The translations under genes and the position numbers were made by a program. The notes below the pieces were generated by a model. It made no database searches. It worked only from the letters and a program-made list of their open reading frames with translations, and was not told the origin of the DNA. 64,000 nt of DNA. Origin: Amoebidium appalachense (lineage: Eukaryota > Protista > Ichthyosporea). Shown piece after piece: positions 2,593-55,144 of this stretch (its first letter is position 1; each line of letters opens with the position of its first letter). The stretch covers positions 1,111,861-1,175,860 of the forward strand of contig CAVNZM010000018.1 in the NCBI GenBank assembly GCA_963693365.1. Reading direction: 5' to 3'.

Positions 2593-5500
2593 ACACACCT
2601 GTTTGCCTGGTCACCCACTGCAGCCTGCAGCCTCCTACGGTACCAAAAGCGGTCAGCCCTCTGCAGCCTCGACAGCTGCAGCAGCACACCGGCCTTAACT
2701 GACGGCCCCACACTGCTTCCAGGTGCATGGTCCTCGGCAAGCATGCCCACGTACATGTCGACCTTCTCCACCTGTGTGTGGAATTAAAACAATTGCGTCA
2801 GAGCACAGGGGAAGGGAAGTAGCAGGGTGTTAAACATGAACTTACAGAGCATGAACCTTGGAGCACATCCCTTTCGGGCGTTAGTGTGTGAGAGCACGTG
2901 CATGCTATTAGCCCACGTGTGTGATGTTCTTGGATGGCGTACGTGCTGCATGTGCATGCACAGTTTGCACACGAGAGTGCATGCACACGTGCATTGCTAC
3001 ACGTGTATGTGTGTGGGACGTGCGAATGACATTGTGCTAGAGAAAATTTGGCAAGCCAGGCGATCATTGGATCGAACCTCCCCCCCCCCCCCCCCCCCCC
3101 CGCCCCCCCCCCCCCCTGCATGCAATCACAGCCGAAAAACCCCCCACCAAGAGTCCCTCCCCCTCACAAACCAAAATATAGTGCCAAGTCCCAATTGCCG
3201 CACTTTGTCGTGAAGTTATTGAACATTTAAACACAATAAAACAAAACACCAAACATCAAGATTAAGATTCAAAGTCACACCTTGTCATTGTACAGGGTTC
3301 TCAGTTTCTCCTGCAGGTCAGGGTCTGACGTGATCTCATCGAAGTCATCGACATCCACATTCAGAAGATCCTTTTTGAATGTTTGGAACGAGGGAAGGCC
3401 GAGGTCTCTGCCTCGTGCAACTGACAGAGACACAATGTCGGCAGCCTCCGAGCCAATGGGGAGGCCACGGAACATGTGGTTGCGCATGCAGTCACCAACC
3501 TGGGAGGGGCAGAGGGGAGAGGGGGAGGAAGGGTACGGGAGGGGGTGGGGGGAGGGGGTGGGGGGAAGGTGGGGGAGGAAAGGTGGGTGGGTGGGTGGGT
3601 GGGGGGGGAATGGACGTGAGTTGCTGGTGGTGGTTACGTGTGTACGTGTGTGTTGGTCACGTGCGTGTGTACGTGTGTGTTGGTCACGTGCGTGTGTACG
3701 TGTGTGTTGGTCACGTGCGTGTGTACGTGTGTGCGTGCGCATTTGCCACAGTTGTATGTGTGTCTGTGTGTGGTGGTGGTGGTGGCAGGGGGGAAGGGGG
3801 AGGGGGGGAGAGGGGGGAGGAGGGGGGGGAATATGGGTAGTTGCCGGTGTCTGTGTCTGTGTCAATGTGTGTGTGCGCGCGCGCACCATTTTGTGCACTA
3901 ACGACAATGGTGGTCCAAATTCCCAAAAATCACACAGAACAACTCAGGCTACTCCTGAGCAGGTGACAAGAACAAAACACCACGATGTTATCCGCATATG
4001 GCATGGAACACAACTGAAAAGCAGGAGCGGCACTTGCATAACCCCTCCCACCCACCCACCCACCCCGGTGGTTCCCCCTTTCACAACCTCTTGCCTGATT
4101 TGGCAAGAGACCCAATATCCGATGCACAATGTATCATGACTGGTGAAAAACACGCCATACGCCACACAACTTCCCCCCCCCCCCGCCCCCCTCCCCCCCC
4201 AAACACACACACACACATCCAACCCCCATTCTTCCAAACACGAAGGCAACACCTGCCCACACTACCCATTCACCCCTCCCGCTTTCCCACAACCAACCCA
4301 ACCCATCCACACACCCGTACGAGTACACACGTAGGCACACACACTGCACACACACACACACGCACGAGTACACACGTAGGCGCACACTCATACGCACATA
4401 CACACACACACACACACACACGTACCCGCATGTCCACGGCCTCCATGCGCTGGAACAGTGCCCCGGCCAGGGTCGAATCAATGCCGCCAGTTTCGAGGAA
4501 CGACTGCCGTGCCTGTGTGCATGTAGTCAGTACACGCACACGGGGTAACACACACCACGCACACACAGGGTTAGACACACCACACAAACACCACAGAGAC
4601 CCTGCCCCCCCCCCCCCCCCCCCCCCCCTGCTCACTTCTCGGCCCCTCCAAACACACACACTCACACACACACACACATACACAACACGCACACACGCAG
4701 GGTCGACAGATCACACACACCCCTCACCACCTCCTCCCTCCGTAACACACACTCTTCTAACTCGACCCCACCACCACCACCTCTTCCATGCTCCGTCCAC
4801 AGCCCTTTCCTTTCATGTACTGTACACCACCATTAGCTACACCCCCATGCATCACAGGCAGACGCCTAACCCTCTACCCCTCTGCCTCACCCCCAAATTC
4901 TTTAATACCGCTTCTATTGTTGTTTACACCACTACACACTGCAAGCAGACACCTACCCCGAAGAAATTAGCCCTCTTCTCCTCGGGCACACACAGGCGCC
5001 AAGGGCCCAGGGGGTGAGGTTGGAAGGTGACGGGGTCTCTGCGGTCGAAGCTATCAGGGACCATGCTGTGGCCCATACGGAAGAGAATGTTGAAGAAACG
5101 GAACAGTTCACCCATACTCTCCTCACTGTATTCCTGCTCCTTGTATTTCTCTCCTGTTAGAGCAGGTAGCCACTCCTGGTAGGTGATGTCCTGCAAAACA
5201 TCAACTGTTAGTGATGTTACCTCAGGTCTTATTCTCGGCTTTTCAACTAAGATGGAGCGTGTGTGTTTGTTTAGTGATGTCATACAGAGGGTGACGTTGA
5301 TTCCATGAGCCGAACGAGGGTAGGCAATTTCACCGAGAGGCATATTTTTATGCCTAAAAGATTCTCAAGCAAGCCTAATTTGTTTGGCCTTCTCCCTCCA
5401 ACACCTTCCCCCCCTCCAACCCTTTCCCCCCCCTCCCCACCCCAACACACACACACACAGACACACACACACACACACACACACATGCACACACCACCCC

Positions 5501-19512: not shown

Positions 19513-20060
19513 GATGCTGCATACTTGAATGTTTGCCTTTGCATGTGTCCTGCACCATGTTTCTCATCGTGTATGCGTACTTCGTACTGTGTTCCGCATT
19601 CAAACCCCCCTGTCTTCTTTCAGAGGTGTCCTTTCAGGACAGACCACTGTGTGGAGACATCTTTACTCCCATGCAACCGGGCATGGTTGCTCTGTGTCGT
19701 GCATCTGTAAGCACATACGCGTTTGTCGCTGCACTGCATTAGTTTGCACATACATCTTCACCGTTTTGCTCACCTTGCTTGCATAAGCAACCCTGCTCGT
19801 CTTTGATCAAGACGGGTTGACCCACCCAAGTTCAGTTGATGCTGCTGTCTGAGTTGGAGCGTCGTATATACGCGGGCTAAGGGGTCGAAACTCAGACGCA
19901 ATTGATGACTTGGGCCCTCCCTGAGGATGGGCTCTGCTTATGACGCATACTGTGCGCATGGCTGATGCTGCATACTTGAATGTTTGCCTTTGCATGTGTC
20001 CTGCACCATGCTTCTCATCGTGTATGCGTACTTCGTACTGTGTTCCGCATTCAAACCCCC
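19513..20060 (+). mobile_element. Non-autonomous PLE/retrozyme-like element, 451-bp unit with ~97-bp pseudo-LTR
   Basis: Direct repeats 19513-19610 and 19964-20060 differ at one base. It is flanked by poly-C on both sides, is non-coding, and is homologous to 33037-33290. Confidence 0.85.
19782..19942 (+). ncRNA. Structured RNA motif copy A (candidate permuted hammerhead-like ribozyme)
   Basis: Several helices covary with copy B. GUU 19853-55, GAAA 19887-90, CUGAGGA 19921-27. Confidence 0.7.
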
Positions 20061-20135
20061 CCCCCCCCCCCCCCCCCCCCGGTCCTCTTCCACCACCACC
20101 ATCACCACCACCACCACTCCCACTCTCCCACTAGC

Positions 20136-20307: not shown

Positions 20308-22164
20308 ACCCCCCCCAACCAACCGACCCATCAACCAACCAATCTGCCACCAATGCACACCAACATGCACCGTAAGGCTCCCCCATTCACACCCACGTTG
20401 CCTCAAAGCAACGCGTTCTTAGCGGCCTCGGTTGGCCCCACGATTAGTCGATCGAAGACTGCATTCCATTAGAAATGAGACATAAAGCTTCCTGATTATT
20501 AACCATCAATCAAGTTTTATTCATTGATTACGATGAGTCACATGAGCCATTAGAGGTCACAAACCAGGCAGTTTAAAGCCTATCTATGTGATGAAGCAGA
20601 GAAATAACAACAAAACAAACTAAAAAAACATCACAACGTGCTGTTTTATTATGTTTAAGTTAATTTGAATTATCAAAAAGCTTACATAAACACCCATGCT
20701 TCCGGTTTTTCCAAAAATCTACAGCCAATCAGAGAACAAATGTGCACTTCGTGTCAGAGCTGTTGATTGGTCGTGCACTCATAATGATCTGGTTCGACCA
20801 ATCATTAACAAACGGCAAAAGCCCTCTTTTGCCTATGTTTTTGAAAGGTGAATTAAAAGGTAACCTTACTTCATTCGAGTTTTGGTAACTTCCAGAACCA
20901 ACGAAAAGGTCCCATAAAAAATACAATACATTTTAAAAGAAACAAGTCACTTCTGTAAAACAGTTTTTTTGATTTCGCTATAATAAGTTGATTTTTTTTT
21001 TCATGCTATGAATGCATAAATCCTCAATGTGTTTTTTTCAAAGTGGAAAAACTCTATATTGGTTTTAGAAAAACGCAAAAACTATTTCACTGACAATATC
21101 AAATATATATATATATATAATGGTTTTTGAAATATCAAATCAAGTCTTTTTGTAACACATTAGGTCAGGAAATGGGATTGAATACACCCTCTTTTGATAC
21201 CGGGATCACATGACCGGGCACTAAGATCGGCTCGCAGATAGGTGTCGTGAACCACCTAACCGGTAATGGTGCAATGGTCACCTCTATCTAGTTTACCTCT
21301 TTTTAAGCCACCAACCACATCACCTCTCCCCAATCCACCTGGTGATAATCACCCAATCAGATCACCCCGTCCCACCCGTGGGCCTGGCCTCTACACGCTA
21401 CCTGGTGATGTTCAATATGGCAACCAATCAACACCCCCGCCAGCATCGGGCCACTTCAGGAGGTCCTCACATGGTCCCCCCGTCATAGTCCCAGGCCCAC
21501 GTCCACACAACAGCGAGTATGACCCCCCCTGCCCCCCCCCCCCCCCCCCCCCCCCCTTCGCCCGCCCACCGCCACCACCGCCATGCACACACATGCACAC
21601 GCGCACGCACTCAGGCACACACATACGCACGGGCACACAAATCACCGCCACCACAATTAAAAACAAAAAAGGAAAAGAAAAAAAAAGAGCGGAAAGAAGG
21701 AAGAAGAGAGGTTGAAAGAAAGAAAGAAAAATGTATATATGGTGCAAAAGGAGACAGCGGTGCAGTGGGGCAAGAGCCGCATGTAACCATGCAAGGTGGA
21801 AGGTTTAATGGAGAAGTGTTTGTATGAAGGGTAGGGGTTGAGACTACATGAAAAGGAGGGAAGGGGGAGGGTGGACGTGAATTTATAAATGGGTGGTGGT
21901 GGATAAGTTTGGGGGGGGGGGGGGGGGGGGGGGGGGGGAGACCTGCATCCGTTCTCTCTCTCTCTCTTATGTGAATGCTTACATGTGTGCGCGTGCCCGC
22001 GCGCGCACGCACACACATACACACACACACACACATTGACATACATCATCCCTCTCTTTCCCATTCCCCGTCTCTCTTTTTTTTTCTCTGATTCTTTCCT
22101 TTCCTCCTTTCGTAATTCCCCGCCCCCTCCCCCCTCCCCCTTCTCCCCTTCCCCTCCTCCCCCC

Positions 22165-27502: not shown

Positions 27503-29976
27503 TTTCCGTTGATGATAGGTTACACAGCTCTGTAAAAGGAGGTGAGAGAAGCAAATGACTGTGGTAGGGAGAAAGATATGATGTCAGAGATAGAAAGTCA
27601 AAGTGGCGAGTGCGCCTGTGTTGTACGTGCGTGTGTTTGTGCATGTGTGCATGTGTGTGTGTGCGTGCGTGTGTGTTGGGGGGGGAGGGTGTGTGTGTGG
27701 TATGTGTGTGTGTGTGTGTGTGTCTTGGAGGGGAGGGTGTGTGTGTGTGTGTGGGTGTGGGTGTGTGTATAGAAGGTGTGTTCAAAGCCGCCGGTGTATG
27801 AAAAAGGGCAACGTCGCCGGTGTATGAAAAAGGGCAACGTGAAGTAAACCACAAAGGCAGAAGAAAGGGAGCAAAGGAGACCGTATGCATAGTGAAATGG
27901 GAGCGAGGCGTGTGTGCATCTGTGTGCGTGTGGGCGTGTGTGTGTTCGTATTTTGTGACAAGTGAAGCGAAGTGAACATCAGATCAAAAGATCCAGCAAG
28001 TGAGGTCCAAAGATCCAGCAAGGGAGGTGCAAGATAGATGCCCGTGTCCACTCAGAAGAGGATTCTCACCAGCCAAAAGTTATAGCACGTTCTAACAGCG
28101 AGGATCTCAAGACACCTTCATAACACACGTTCACAAACACGTTCTCAATGGATGCACACCTTTTTTTCCAGGTAGTAGTTCACTGTTGTACTTATTACGA
28201 GGCGATTCTCAGTTTTTGTGCATCTGACACTGATTATATATTTTTTGAGGCATTCCATATGATGTCATGAGAGGGGCTCTGGTCTATGTGTGACCTGTAG
28301 CCAACCATTGCGCGCAATTAGGCGATTGGTGCTACCAGTGCTTTCCAGACGTTAATTAAGGAGCCGGACAGGTGTGTTAATACATACATTCGGTTATCAG
28401 ATATATTTTAATAAAAACTAGTCGTATATTTTTATAAATATCCAACTAAAGGGAAATGAACCACTTTTTTCTATCATTTCATATTTCTCAGAGTGTTAAC
28501 TCTTGTCAGGCTCTTACCGCTCGGGAGTGTTCCTCGGAGCGTGAAAACTGAGTAAGCCAATCGTTTCATAGGCGCGAGAGCGTGTCTTCACCGGTGTTGA
28601 AGGAGCACTGGGCCGGCGCCCACGTCCCGTTCTCAATTTTTTATGATAACCGTGCCCACACTCCCACGAATGTATCATATGCTCGGTGGTTATTGGACAT
28701 GCACTTTATCTATCTTTGCGTTTCATGGCGATATTTGACTTTCATGTATTCACTTTCAAAGTTACATGATTTTACATGTACATCCTCACGTCAAAGTCGA
28801 TGCCTGCGTACACAATGTTCTTCCTCCGCAGTGGCATATATATGTCTGTCCAATAGCTGCCAGTTTTAAATCCATTACAATTTAATAGAGGCATCCCTAC
28901 TACATATCACGAGTCAGTGTAACCAACCACGCAACCAATGAGCTGCAACAAGATTTATTGATTTGCCATATTTGGCAAGCTATTATATCATTTGTCGTCA
29001 CGTTGCCGGCACAGCGGCGCAATCGTTCCGCAAAACGGCACTCTGCACGCCGATCAACTCTGCATTTCTTCCGAAGAAATGTTTACTGGTAGACACGGCC
29101 AAAAAACAGAGCTCGAGACAGGTTAGTTAGGGCGTAAGTCGGGTAAATAGGCGGTGCAAGCGCCTTATTTTCTCAGTTTTGCCTGGGCTGAAAATGCAGC
29201 AGCTGGAGTTTTATAGGCAACGTTTGGTGAAAGGCGAGTGGTTGCTGCCGATGTGCTCGCCTTTGCAGCGTCGGGCTTCCTGTGACTGTGAGTTGTTATT
29301 TTTTTCTGCGCCGCCTGTAGATAGGGTACCTGGCAGCCTCCCTAATCCCCAACACTTATCAGATATTCATTCATTGGGTGATAACGTGTATAACTTAACT
29401 CGATTTGGCGTGATAACTCATCAAGTTATAGGCTCGAGAGGTGTAACAAGCGGTACAGTATCATGTTGAGCTGTATAGCGGGACCTCGCGTATTTCGACC
29501 GTGTAATTGCTCACATCAGCATAAACATTCGTGGTGTTTTAGAAAACGGGTTATATAACTACGCAAAGGAAGTAATCCCTTAGCGTTTAACTGTAAAAGT
29601 AACAGTGGCACGCTCCTTTCTGTCGGGTTCAACAAACTAGCCTTCTATTCCGGGTTGCAATAACAAAAGAACACACAACTGACAACTGAGCATCTTGACT
29701 GTACGAACCAGCGAGGTGTGATCTCTGGTTTGCCGAGTGGTGTGCCCCTTCCCCCCTCCCCAACCCCAACCCTGCCGCTCTCTCACCCGTTCCGCCCCCT
29801 CAACCTCTCCCCCTTCCGTCATTCTCGTCTTTCTTTCTCTTCCTCCCCGGGCCCCTGCATCTCCCTCTCCCCCCCCCCCCCGTCATTCTCTCCCGCTCTC
29901 CTCTCTCCTTCTCCGTCTCAAACTCCCCCCCCCCCCCCCCCCCTCCTCTTCCCCCCCCCCCCCCCCCCCCCCCCCC

Positions 29977-31013
29977 AGCTCTTGGATTCTCACGGATAGC
30001 ACCGCACTCACACACACAATCAACGCCCTTAACCGTACCACACGCCAACACGAAAATACGCCCGTGTCTGTGTTTGATTTTTCCACACTCTACACCAAGA
30101 TTGACTTGCATGATTTGAAAGCTCGCCTCACTACACTGATTGATGCAATATTTGTCAAAAAAAATGCACGTACGCTCGCAAACCACACATGTTTATTAAG
30201 AAAACCGGCTCCACGTTGTCCTGGGTGGATCGTGTAGATGATGATTCCTAGGATGATTCCTTTGAGCCTAAAGAACACTCTCTGCATCTCTCTAAGGCAC
30301 AGCTTGCGGATTTTCTATGTTTCCTCGTAGATAACATATATATTGTGTTTGGCGATACCCTCTACAAACAGGACATTGGTATCCCCATGGGTACAAACTG
30401 TGCTGTTTTCTTGGCTAATTTCTATCTCTTTACTTATGAGTTGGATTTTGTTCGCAAACTTATTGCACACGACCGCATTGATGTCTTGGTAGATTTTCAG
30501 TTTACTCGCCGCTACATAGATGATTTGATCTCCCTTCATAATCCTCGCGTTCTCTCCCACCTCTATTTAGAAGATTGTGATTTCGGTCTATATCCCAAGA
30601 CCAGCCTTCAACTCAACCCTGCCGGTTCCTCCCCCTCTGTCCCCTACCTCGACTTGCATATCACCTGCACTAATCACGGCATTCACACAACCATCTACAA
30701 CAAGCTCGACACACCCAGGTTCAATACACTAGACATCGTTCGTTTCCCACATCACGACTCATTCATCTCCCGCACTGCAAAATACGGCATCATGACAAGT
30801 CAAATGCATAGCTACCAGCGCAAATGCTCCACACTTGCTGCTTTCACCACATGCACTGCACGACTTTCTAAAACATTGCTTAACAAAGGCTACTCGTTTA
30901 GACTCTTGCACCACAAAATGCACAGCTTTCTCGCCACACACCCGCACATATACCGTGGCGTTCACTCCTCTCACATACTCTCCAACCTCACTAAAAAGAT
31001 CAACACTCCCTAG
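29977..31013 (+). pseudogene. 5'-truncated reverse transcriptase of a Penelope-like element (Naiad/Chlamys-type, RT at C-terminus)
   Basis: Motifs WILTDS, FDFSTLYTKI, GIPMGTNCAVFLANFYL, RRYIDD, YLDL, IYNK, FPHHDS and YGIMTSQ. No endonuclease follows the RT. A frameshift lies in the A8 run at ~30157-30164 and an in-frame TAG (30249) lies within a short GATGATTCCT duplication. It begins directly after a poly-C tract. Confidence 0.88.
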
Positions 31014-31443: not shown

Positions 31444-31732
31444 CCCTTCCCCCCTCCCCCCCCTTTTCCCCCTCCCTCCCCTCCCCTCCCCCCTTTTTTT
31501 TTTTTCTCCTCCCCCTCCCCCCCCCCCCCCCCCCCTTCTCCTCCCCCCCCCCCCTTTTTTTTTTTCTCCCCCTTCTCCCCCGCCTCCCCCCCCCCCTCTC
31601 CCTCCCCTCCCATCGCCCCTTCCCCGGCCTACTCCCCCCCCCTCCCCCCCTCCCCTTCCCCTCCTACCTTCTTTCCCCCCTTCCCCCCCCCCCCCCCCCC
31701 TGGCCAAACCATGTATACACTCTTCTCATCAG

Positions 31733-31880
31733 CAGGTCTCTAACCCACTCTGCAGAACGTTTTACGCATTTCTCCCCTTGGAGAACTTTGTCGTTGGTGC
31801 GTTTTTGTCTGATATCTAACGACTCTGCAGGGTCCCCTGAGACTACTGACACTCTAACATTCCCTCCCCTCTCTTACTTC

Positions 31881-31918
<38 letters not shown>

Positions 31919-32074
31919 TTCCCCTCCTCCTTCCCCTCCCATTTTCTCTGCACACTCAACAGGTCTTAACCAGCTCTGCACATCGTTAGTCACAATCTTC
32001 TCTCATATATGAGAGAATGATCGTATTGGTACGATTTGTCTAATATCTGACGATTCTGCAGCATCCCTAAGACC
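31733..32074 (+). repeat. Two diverged ~110-bp structured direct repeats in the PLE 3' region
   Basis: 31733-31844 and 31960-32074 share CAGGTCT..AACC..CTCTGCA...TTGTCT.ATATCT.ACGA.TCTGCAG..TCCC..AGAC. Confidence 0.75.
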
Positions 32075-33044: not shown

Positions 33045-33198
33045 CATAAGCAACCCTGCTCGTCTCTGATCAAGACGGGTGACCTACCCATGTTCAAGTG
33101 AAACAGTATCTGAGTTGGGTTTCGTTAACGAGGTGAATAGGTCGAAACTCGGGTACTGTGGATGACGTGGGACCCCCCTGAGGATGGGCTCTGCTTAT
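33045..33198 (+). ncRNA. Structured RNA motif copy B (candidate permuted hammerhead-like ribozyme)
   Basis: 14-bp helix 33103-33116/33146-33159. GUU 33114-16, GAAA 33144-47, CUGAGGA 33178-84. Covaries with copy A. Confidence 0.7.
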
Positions 33199-34175
33199 TA
33201 TGCATACTCTTTATGTATGGCTTGCATTCTGCATCGTGTTCTCCGTTTGTTCTTGTGTACTTCGTACTTTTTGACGCATTCAAACCCCCCTCCTCCCCCC
33301 GGCCCTCCCAGTGTGTGTTCGGTACTGCACGACATGGTAGTGGTGTTTTTTGTTGCTTGGGATAATCACACGTGCATTCGTATGCCACAGTTTCAACCTC
33401 CTCCTCTTCTCCTCAACCAACCCCTCACTCCCCCTAGCCCCATTCCCATCACCTCCCTTTCCCCCCCACACCTCCCAAGGCCACACGTTTGTAAGAGGTT
33501 TGTGGTATGTGTTTCGAGGTTGGAAGGGGATGTGTGGATGAGTGCCAGCAGAGTCTAGATCGAGAGCTAGGAGTACTTGGGTGCTGGGCTGTGGGGGCCG
33601 CATAGAGGAAAGGGACTCTCTAAGTGATACAGCAAAGACGCAAGGCTCGAAATGCTATGAGCCAAGTTATCCCTACATTTACAACTATTAATCCCCTTAG
33701 CACGCTTGCACATATGTACACACGCACACACACCGTGACACACACACACGTGTACACACGTAACTCAACACACACACTTGTCCACACACTCCACGCACAT
33801 GTGTGCACAAACAAAATAGACCGACGGTATTCATGGACACACAAACACAGGAACTTCAGCAAACTATGCAGTGCCATGCACGATGATGTGTGTGTGTCGC
33901 GGTGTGCATGCTGGTGAAATGGTGCCCTGGGCCCTGCAGAAAGTTCTGAACGTGCGTGTGAGGTGCGCGCACCTCAGGTTTAAATGGAGTTGGAAGGTCG
34001 AACTGGTGCAGCAGGCCACAAAGCAGTTCTTGCTATACATGCCCAGGCGAGCTCTGGGTGAAGGTGGAGAGGGAGGATAGACATATATATGACTAAGGAA
34101 ACCTAGAGAGAGGGGGAGCCCCAAGGGGGGAGGCCCGGGAGGGAAGGAGCTTCGGGGGGGAAGGTGCAACCAGAG

Positions 34176-35465: not shown

Positions 35466-55144
<19,679 letters not shown>

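Follow-up and report, generated by a model that had tools for sequence, protein, structure and literature searches.

Two copies of a split-core RNA

The window analysed here, 64,000 nucleotides (nt) of contig CAVNZM010000018.1 from the ichthyosporean Amoebidium appalachense, carries two copies of an RNA resembling the hammerhead ribozyme. Eckert et al. 2023 (PMC10085705) describe a hammerhead as three blocks, C (CUGAnGA with strands of stems I and II), G and S; in both copies the block order is S-G-C and the core is split. Copy B lies at 33045..33198, with its predicted cut after 33116, and copy A at 19782..19942, with its predicted cut after 19855, both on the + strand. They share 71.6% identity across about 290 nt. 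When both strands of the window were scanned with a descriptor that combines the core letters with five helices, exactly two sites were returned, A and B.

Read from its 5' end, copy B opens with the 5' half of an insert (33046..33080), made up of the 5' strands of a closing helix, P1 (33046-52/33192-98), and of a short inner helix (33054-56/33186-88), followed by the hairpin P2 (33058-65/33073-80), which ends directly before G10.1. The next segment (33081..33094) holds the displaced 5' strand of stem II (33081-86/33138-43) and then the 5' strand of a bridging helix between stems I and II (33087-94/33164-71). Block S (33103..33119) consists of a stem III strand (33103-15/33147-59), U16.1 at 33115, H17 at 33116 and the 3' strand of stem I (33117-19/33175-77), and block G (33138..33159) of the 3' strand of stem II, GAAA at 33144-47 and the second stem III strand. 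The final segment (33164..33198) carries the 3' strand of the bridging helix, the 5' strand of stem I, CUGAGGA at 33178-84 and the 3' strands of the inner helix and P1. In copy A, also on the + strand, the corresponding elements are stem II (19819-23/19882-86), the bridging helix (19825-32/19907-14), stem III (19846-54/19890-98), stem I (19856-59/19917-20), GAAA (19887-90) and CUGAGGA (19921-27), with a kink-turn signature at 19838-39 / 19901-05. The bridging helix is 8 bp in both copies, while stem III is 13 bp in B and 9 bp in A.

The hammerhead invariants CUGAnGA, GAAA and UH stand in register with all three stems, I to III, in A and B, the G10.1-C11.1 and A15.1-U16.1 pairs are present, and the stems covary: between A and B both sides have changed at pair 3 of stem I, pair 5 of stem II, pair 5 of the bridging helix and pair 8 of stem III. 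The initial annotation had described two diverged copies that keep their helices through compensatory changes and bring the core nucleotides into register. Every helix that it named was recovered, and the register was confirmed by the descriptor scan and by the shuffles described below. The palindromic loops that it reported do exist, but each is equally explained as the closing pair of a hairpin plus its loop.

To obtain a shuffle control, the core letters were fixed and all other positions were mononucleotide-shuffled, 3000 times per copy. The helix score of A or B was reached by 0/3000 shuffles, and the strict descriptor was passed by 0/3000 shuffles of B and 1/3000 of A. Stems I and II are pseudoknots, and the plain-fold energies are for this reason unremarkable, with z = -1.5 for B and -2.6 for A.

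The sequencing runs (X1, X2, X13, X15 and others) were examined as contigs, with RNA as a possible source for X13 and X20; 8486 contig pieces from run X1 and 15253 from run X2 fell on the two stretches, and their summed depths do not equal copy number. Two run X1 variants, 33085 T>C (~4% depth) and 33139 A>G (~3%), form a compensatory stem II pair. According to the contigs, B differs from its subfamily majority at 33088, 33134, 33172 and 33241. No common variants were found at core positions in the contigs, which is uninformative, as most positions lack them. In the junction tables, themselves a weak test as they derive from contigs, partial tandem copies start at 33155-33184 and at 33056, and none at 33117. 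Contig ends at 33118 in runs X13 and X15 were considered as a cleavage signal and rejected: they stop 30 bases past the common variant 33088 and are seen in a DNA run too. Separately, record 12 of run X13 and a loose end of run X15 at 33129-33205 reveal at least one further host subfamily, with a different bridging-helix strand and different stem II letters.

The split of block C

In A and B the strand that follows CUGAGGA pairs with the strand before GAAA over only 2 bp, whereas the upstream strand (33081-86; 19819-23) pairs over 5-6 bp and supplies G10.1. The same holds in 10/10 representatives of the fold, with 0-3 pairs for the strand after CUGAnGA and 5-12 for the upstream strand. A9 runs into the 3' strand of the closing helix, whose 5' strand leads to hairpin P2 and from there to G10.1, with 0-1 unpaired nt per step. 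The 5' strand of stem II sits upstream of the cut site, and the closing helix and the hairpin at A9/G10.1 rejoin it to CUGAnGA. A branched insert between A9 and G10.1, as the initial annotation had proposed, is thereby supported.

The copies differ from hammerhead types I-III (Rfam clan CL00010) in having the order S-G-C rather than the cyclic order C-G-S, and they score below the gathering threshold. The best Rfam match of B was to Hammerhead_1, at 14.2 bits against a threshold of 34 (E 2.1), and covered the stem II-GAAA part only; no relevant match was found for A or for the related locus L255. In an Rfam scan of the whole window all matches were below the gathering score and none lay on A or B (among 150 of 180 matches). 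The expectation that standard descriptors would miss this RNA was thus borne out.

The reversed block order had been put forward as new. The order is indeed reversed, but it corresponds to the types SGC and CSG of Eckert et al. 2023 (PMC10085705). In the passages of that paper that concern them, natural RNAs of SGC and CSG order were shown to cleave, and SGC hammerheads with a bridging helix cut in vitro as constructs of 77-81 nt; the reversed order itself is therefore not new. Like A and B, type SGC (HRIMA-1 and SGC variants) has the order cut site, GAAA, CUGAnGA, with stems I and II as pseudoknots, a linker from stem I to stem II and a helix joining the outer strands of these stems (PMC10085705); in the relatives of A and B this bridging helix has 4 bp or more. 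The difference lies in block C, which the same passages assume to be uninterruptible: in type SGC it is continuous, with the stem II strand within 1-2 nt of CUGAnGA, whereas in A and B that strand has moved 5' and is rejoined through P1 and P2. Type SGC RNAs are also about 80 nt long and metatranscriptomic, none being described there from genomes of known organisms, while the split fold spans 130-160 nt and occurs in eukaryotic repeats (PMC10085705). Type CSG shares the cyclic block order of A and B and likewise has the 5' strand of stem II ahead of block S on a single strand; it starts with an intact block C, whereas the A/B RNA is opened up within that block, at A9/G10.1 (PMC10085705).

A literature search, with the supplements of Eckert et al. 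and Weinberg et al. 2015 outside its range, brought up the SGC and the Naiad/Chlamys papers, but neither a block C that is split nor retroelements with a permuted hammerhead. A passage of PMC13725137, citing Weinberg et al. 2015, mentions variants of the hammerhead that have extra helices, and no helix at 9/10.1 appears in the passages on hammerheads of Forgia 2023, Perreault 2011 and Weinberg 2019. Sections of PMC4209133 report a natural extra nucleotide at 9/10.1 in hammerheads of Penelope-like elements (PLEs), so that an insertion at this point is plausible.

Taken on sequence evidence, what appears new is the split of block C; A and B would belong to a known class of ribozymes as a variant whose conserved structure is real and which is likely catalytic. 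If the CUGAnGA strand can be separated from its stem II partner, a working rule is broken, there would be more than six hammerhead topologies, and present descriptors would miss them. Non-circularly permuted hammerheads, so far placed in unassigned metatranscriptome contigs, would also gain a place in eukaryotic retroelements that exist in many genomic copies.

Relatives in other collections

A relaxed core pattern was used to search other collections, and returned 119 loci in metagenome contigs (33/64 parts), 12 in viral contigs and 120 in prokaryote genomes (57/64 parts). The descriptor was passed by 8/120 metagenome matches, 0/12 viral matches and 1/121 prokaryote-genome matches. The eight metagenome matches amount to five distinct sequences (L087; L038; L003/L017; L085/L086/L105; L106). 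None of the metagenome loci was similar to A or B by BLAST, and no reverse transcriptase (RT) similarity was found at the metagenome and viral loci. The viral contigs contained 0 matches to the exact family pattern, and RT searches of them found no relative. Under constrained folding the nested scaffold was obtained for A, B, L038, L252-L255 and L087. L085, L086 and L105 are split-fold candidates in contigs of nearly equal length (11,046-11,082 nt) with shifted starts and a second CUGAnGA about 330 nt downstream; this arrangement suggests a circular 11-kb element.

The lone passing match from prokaryote genomes, L140, lies in eukaryote-like DNA: it sits in (CA)n-rich sequence among animal-like genes of a 20.3-Mb metagenome-assembled genome, G001. 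This genome is filed as Stappiaceae, and its contigs C87, C89, C91, C97 and C103 are eukaryote-like, with ankyrin and GTPase genes, microsatellites and Penelope RTs; such DNA is most likely host contamination. G001 holds 10 matches. The strict descriptor is satisfied by 6/10, and three of these belong to a tandem array with spacings of 800 and 1200 nt; the other 4/10 are decayed and lie inside segmental duplications.

An animal-like alignment of 10 rows was built from 9/10 G001 copies (L259, near-identical to L261, was left out) and L038. In this alignment 92.9% of cells were paired and 11/31 pairs had changed on both sides, a result that 0/500 shuffles reached, with shuffles that ignore relatedness. 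When the structure was slid along the alignment as a control, 35-54% of cells were paired. Double changes occurred in all six helices, P1 and P2 included. Across the 10 representatives, which come from five families, stems I-III keep their pairing with many pair types, and stem II positions 2-6 show three or four types each.

Penelope context

A 5'-truncated RT remnant of the Naiad/Chlamys clade lies at 29983..31013 on the + strand, beginning right after poly-C. It corresponds to residues 597-938 of P0001, with one frameshift near 30160 and one in-frame stop, and is 96-100% identical to P0001/P0017, which are listed as Amoebidium parasiticum transcripts. Pfam and PDB searches with the 253-aa RT piece alone gave no match. 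P0001 has a GIY-YIG domain N-terminal to the RT (residues 27-79, E 3.4e-4, just under the Pfam cut-off) and, by eye, CxC and DKA motifs and no CCHH. Judged through P0001, the remnant is of the N-terminal-endonuclease (EN) PLE architecture seen in Naiad and Chlamys, and it appears nearer Chlamys, given the lack of CCHH by eye and the poly-C flanks; the Chlamys subclade is marked by an EN free of CCHH and by (C)n or (CA)n targets.

Copy B lies 2.0 kb downstream of the remnant on the same strand, with C/CT-rich tracts and short unique segments between them, and its 3' tail (33199..33290, + strand) ends in a motif common to A and runs into a C-rich tract. A Naiad/Chlamys-type carrier had been proposed for this RNA. 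The fold is tied to N-terminal-EN Penelope elements by P0001 and by two Naiad consensus ends, and copy B and the RT remnant may form one element. Two segments between them, 31720-31836 and 31946-32067, are diverged copies of each other (71% over 126 nt), each with C-rich flanks, and represent either a small repeat or part of the element 3' region.

Copy A belongs to a non-autonomous repeat unit of 452 nt (19605..20056, + strand), which lacks an open reading frame and sits in poly-C. Head-to-tail joints of this unit are found in the runs: the joint 20056 -> 19605 occurs in 3/4 runs of the joint table, and the fourth run has a wrap-around contig. A partial upstream copy of its 3' end, 98 nt at 19513..19610 on the + strand, is 98.98% identical to 19964-20061, is preceded by poly-C and resembles the pseudo-long terminal repeat (pLTR) of a partial tandem. 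As a short non-coding tandem unit with one hammerhead, unit A has the form of a non-LTR retrozyme. AT-richer stretches free of microsatellites adjoin each Penelope-related insertion (20400-21200 and 28000-29700) and are possibly other mobile elements.

In the sections of Craig et al. 2021 (PMC8557442) consulted, Naiad and Chlamys elements are described as having an N-terminal EN, insertion into (C)n and partial tandems, and are reported without canonical hammerheads. The intact relative of the window remnant shares the RT/EN architecture, and the (C)n insertion and partial tandems are also found here. The host differs, being an ichthyosporean, a lineage that is not among the metadata rows examined from PMC8557442, and no permuted hammerhead is reported in those sections. 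In the supplement of that paper, 12 Naiad and 11 Chlamys consensus sequences were inspected by eye, each over at least its final 600 nt. Read in this way, Naiad_Amil carries the complete split fold, some 50 nt short of its end. The split fold is also present in Naiad_Ovul, while the ends of Naiad Nbra-3, Hpol and Smim have a C-then-G order with a long stem II. Naiad_CGi, Naiad-1_Skow and Naiad-1_Pfla share another 3' motif just past the stop codon, not hammerhead-like by eye. The Naiad-like elements of G001 (L262 at about 3130-3330; L263-L269) end in yet another conserved, highly paired segment with long nested helices and no Rfam match. Judged from these ends and copies, the split fold is a feature of only part of the N-terminal-EN elements, together with non-autonomous elements derived from them.

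Known hammerheads of PLEs and retrozymes resemble A and B in lying in the 3'/pLTR part and in short tandem non-autonomous units. They differ in being of type I, in that most of them have a stem III reduced to a minimum and depend on dimers, and in having one extra nt at 9/10.1 where A and B have two helices (passages of PMC4209133 and of bioRxiv 10.64898/2026.07.22.740005). The abundant Naiad/Chlamys elements have been reported without canonical hammerheads, and the question whether a hidden one processes their tandem RNAs becomes testable.

Proposed mechanism and alternatives

We consider it probable that A and B have a complete S-G-C core in which the displaced stem II is rejoined through the closing helix and the hairpin, and that they self-cleave as single RNAs, at the sites predicted above, so as to process tandem Penelope transcripts. 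The steps would be as follows. P1 would clamp both RNA ends so that A9 meets G10.1. The long arm, consisting of the bridging helix and stem III, would then bend at an internal loop, which in A and the animal-like family resembles a kink-turn, and its apical loop would dock on the multiloop to form stems I and II. Cleavage would proceed by G12/G8 acid-base chemistry as in any hammerhead. With one cut per repeat, 170-200 nt before the element 3' end, partial-tandem transcripts would yield unit-length RNA. Religation of the products into circles is plausible, because they would stay paired through four helices (P1, stem II, bridging helix and stem III), and by analogy with retrozymes as outlined in bioRxiv 10.64898/2026.07.22.740005.

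The bend of the arm was examined against the kink-turn consensus. Copy A has a 3-nt bulge at 19901-03, tandem G-A pairs and a U-U pair. The signature is found in 6/10 representatives (A, L038, L252-L255) and not in B, L087, L085 or L017. The stacking regained in stems I and II amounts to about 18-19 kcal/mol, with pseudoknot penalties still to be deducted.

Several observations weigh against self-cleavage of A and B as single RNAs, or against the breadth of the fold. With stems I and II left unpaired, the nested scaffold is less stable than the minimum-energy fold by 4.1 kcal/mol in B and 10.5 kcal/mol in A. Stem I is short, at 3 bp for B and 4 bp for A, and the H17 position is occupied by a U. 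B keeps the G-A pairs but has a 1-nt rather than a 3-nt kink-turn bulge, and a crude length estimate for monomer closure gives about 63 Å needed against 54 Å available in B (~two frayed pairs), and 83 against 40 in L087. Run X1 also contains a disruptive variant, 33077 G>A, at about 9% depth. On the side of the searches, the descriptor thresholds were set after the candidates had been viewed, and for most representatives the first four stem III pairs and two stem I pairs are fixed by the search pattern and carry no weight. L017 and L085 refold poorly into the scaffold, and the membership of L106 in the split fold is doubtful. The fold was not seen by eye at 10/12 of the Naiad consensus ends in the supplement of PMC8557442 (seven of them without any such motif) or at 11/11 of the Chlamys ends. 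In G001 no RT was found within about 8 kb of the split-fold copies, and the fold was not found within 1.5 kb downstream of the Naiad-like RTs.

The poor fold-back of the rigid arm in B or L087 would be relieved if the RNA worked as a domain-swapped dimer only, in which one copy's arm would dock on a second copy's multiloop, aided in this host by the two self-complementary loops, so that tandems are cut and monomers spared. The initial annotation had likewise suggested dimer dependence through the palindromes. As homodimers, the P2 and linker hairpins of the two copies are stabilised by 9.6-12.6 kcal/mol, a figure that stands without a non-palindromic comparison, the linker loop, though not the same in A and B, is self-complementary in each, and in canonical PLE hammerheads dimeric cleavage is the rule (sections of PMC4209133). 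Those dimer-dependent hammerheads are defined there, however, by a stem III of 1-2 bp or none and a palindromic loop 3, whereas stem III of A and B, at 9-13 bp, closes within one copy. In the animal-like family the loops of P2 and of the linker show no consistent palindromes, the linker variant in a run X15 contig differs, and the kink-turn signature offers a monomer route. A dimer is possible but not needed, given the length of stem III and the inconsistent palindromes of the loops beyond this host; the suggested dependence was not upheld, and we regard an obligate dimer as unlikely. Slightly less likely still is that the fold is real but serves mainly as a non-cutting 3' structure, for RT/endonuclease recognition or priming, or that A and B no longer cleave. 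It occupies the region in which retroelements have their 3' cis signals, unrelated conserved structures are present at other Naiad ends, stem I is short with a GUU site and competing folds, B has departed from its subfamily majority at the four positions given above, and decayed copies make up 4/10 of those in G001. Protein binding, however, would not require catalytic letters in exact register across five families with unrelated stems, and the deviations of B leave the core untouched and preserve pairing.

A plain type-SGC hammerhead, whose stem II would arise from the letters right after CUGAGGA and for which the upstream helices would be incidental, would share the block order and the bridging helix (in the cited passages of PMC10085705). 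We judge it very improbable, as the adjacent strand forms far fewer pairs than the upstream one in every representative, and changes on both sides of a pair occur in P1, in P2 and in the displaced stem II. Pattern scans of this kind give more than a hundred chance matches per collection, so a chance assembly of short motifs in a GC-rich repeat was considered as well. With the shuffles, the covariation and the reappearance of the fold among unrelated sequences and in the 3' ends of published Naiad elements all standing against it, chance is the least probable of these alternatives and is refuted as far as sequence analysis can do so.

Going beyond cleavage of A and B as single RNAs, we tentatively propose, as a reading that may well prove too broad, that they represent a fourth-open-helix topology, in which the RNA ends exit inside the catalytic strand at A9/G10.1, built on a non-circular permutation. 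It would be an old 3'-processing ribozyme of N-terminal-EN Penelope elements in an ichthyosporean and in animals, whose clamped products would let it both cut tandem transcripts and reclose circles.

Other repeats in the window

Two further repeats were observed in the window. A tandem array with a 51-nt period occupies 51563-52332, its copies being 96-98% identical and lying inside long open frames. A dispersed repeat of 138 nt is present at 87-223 and 44897-45033, in inverted orientation and with 95.7% identity.
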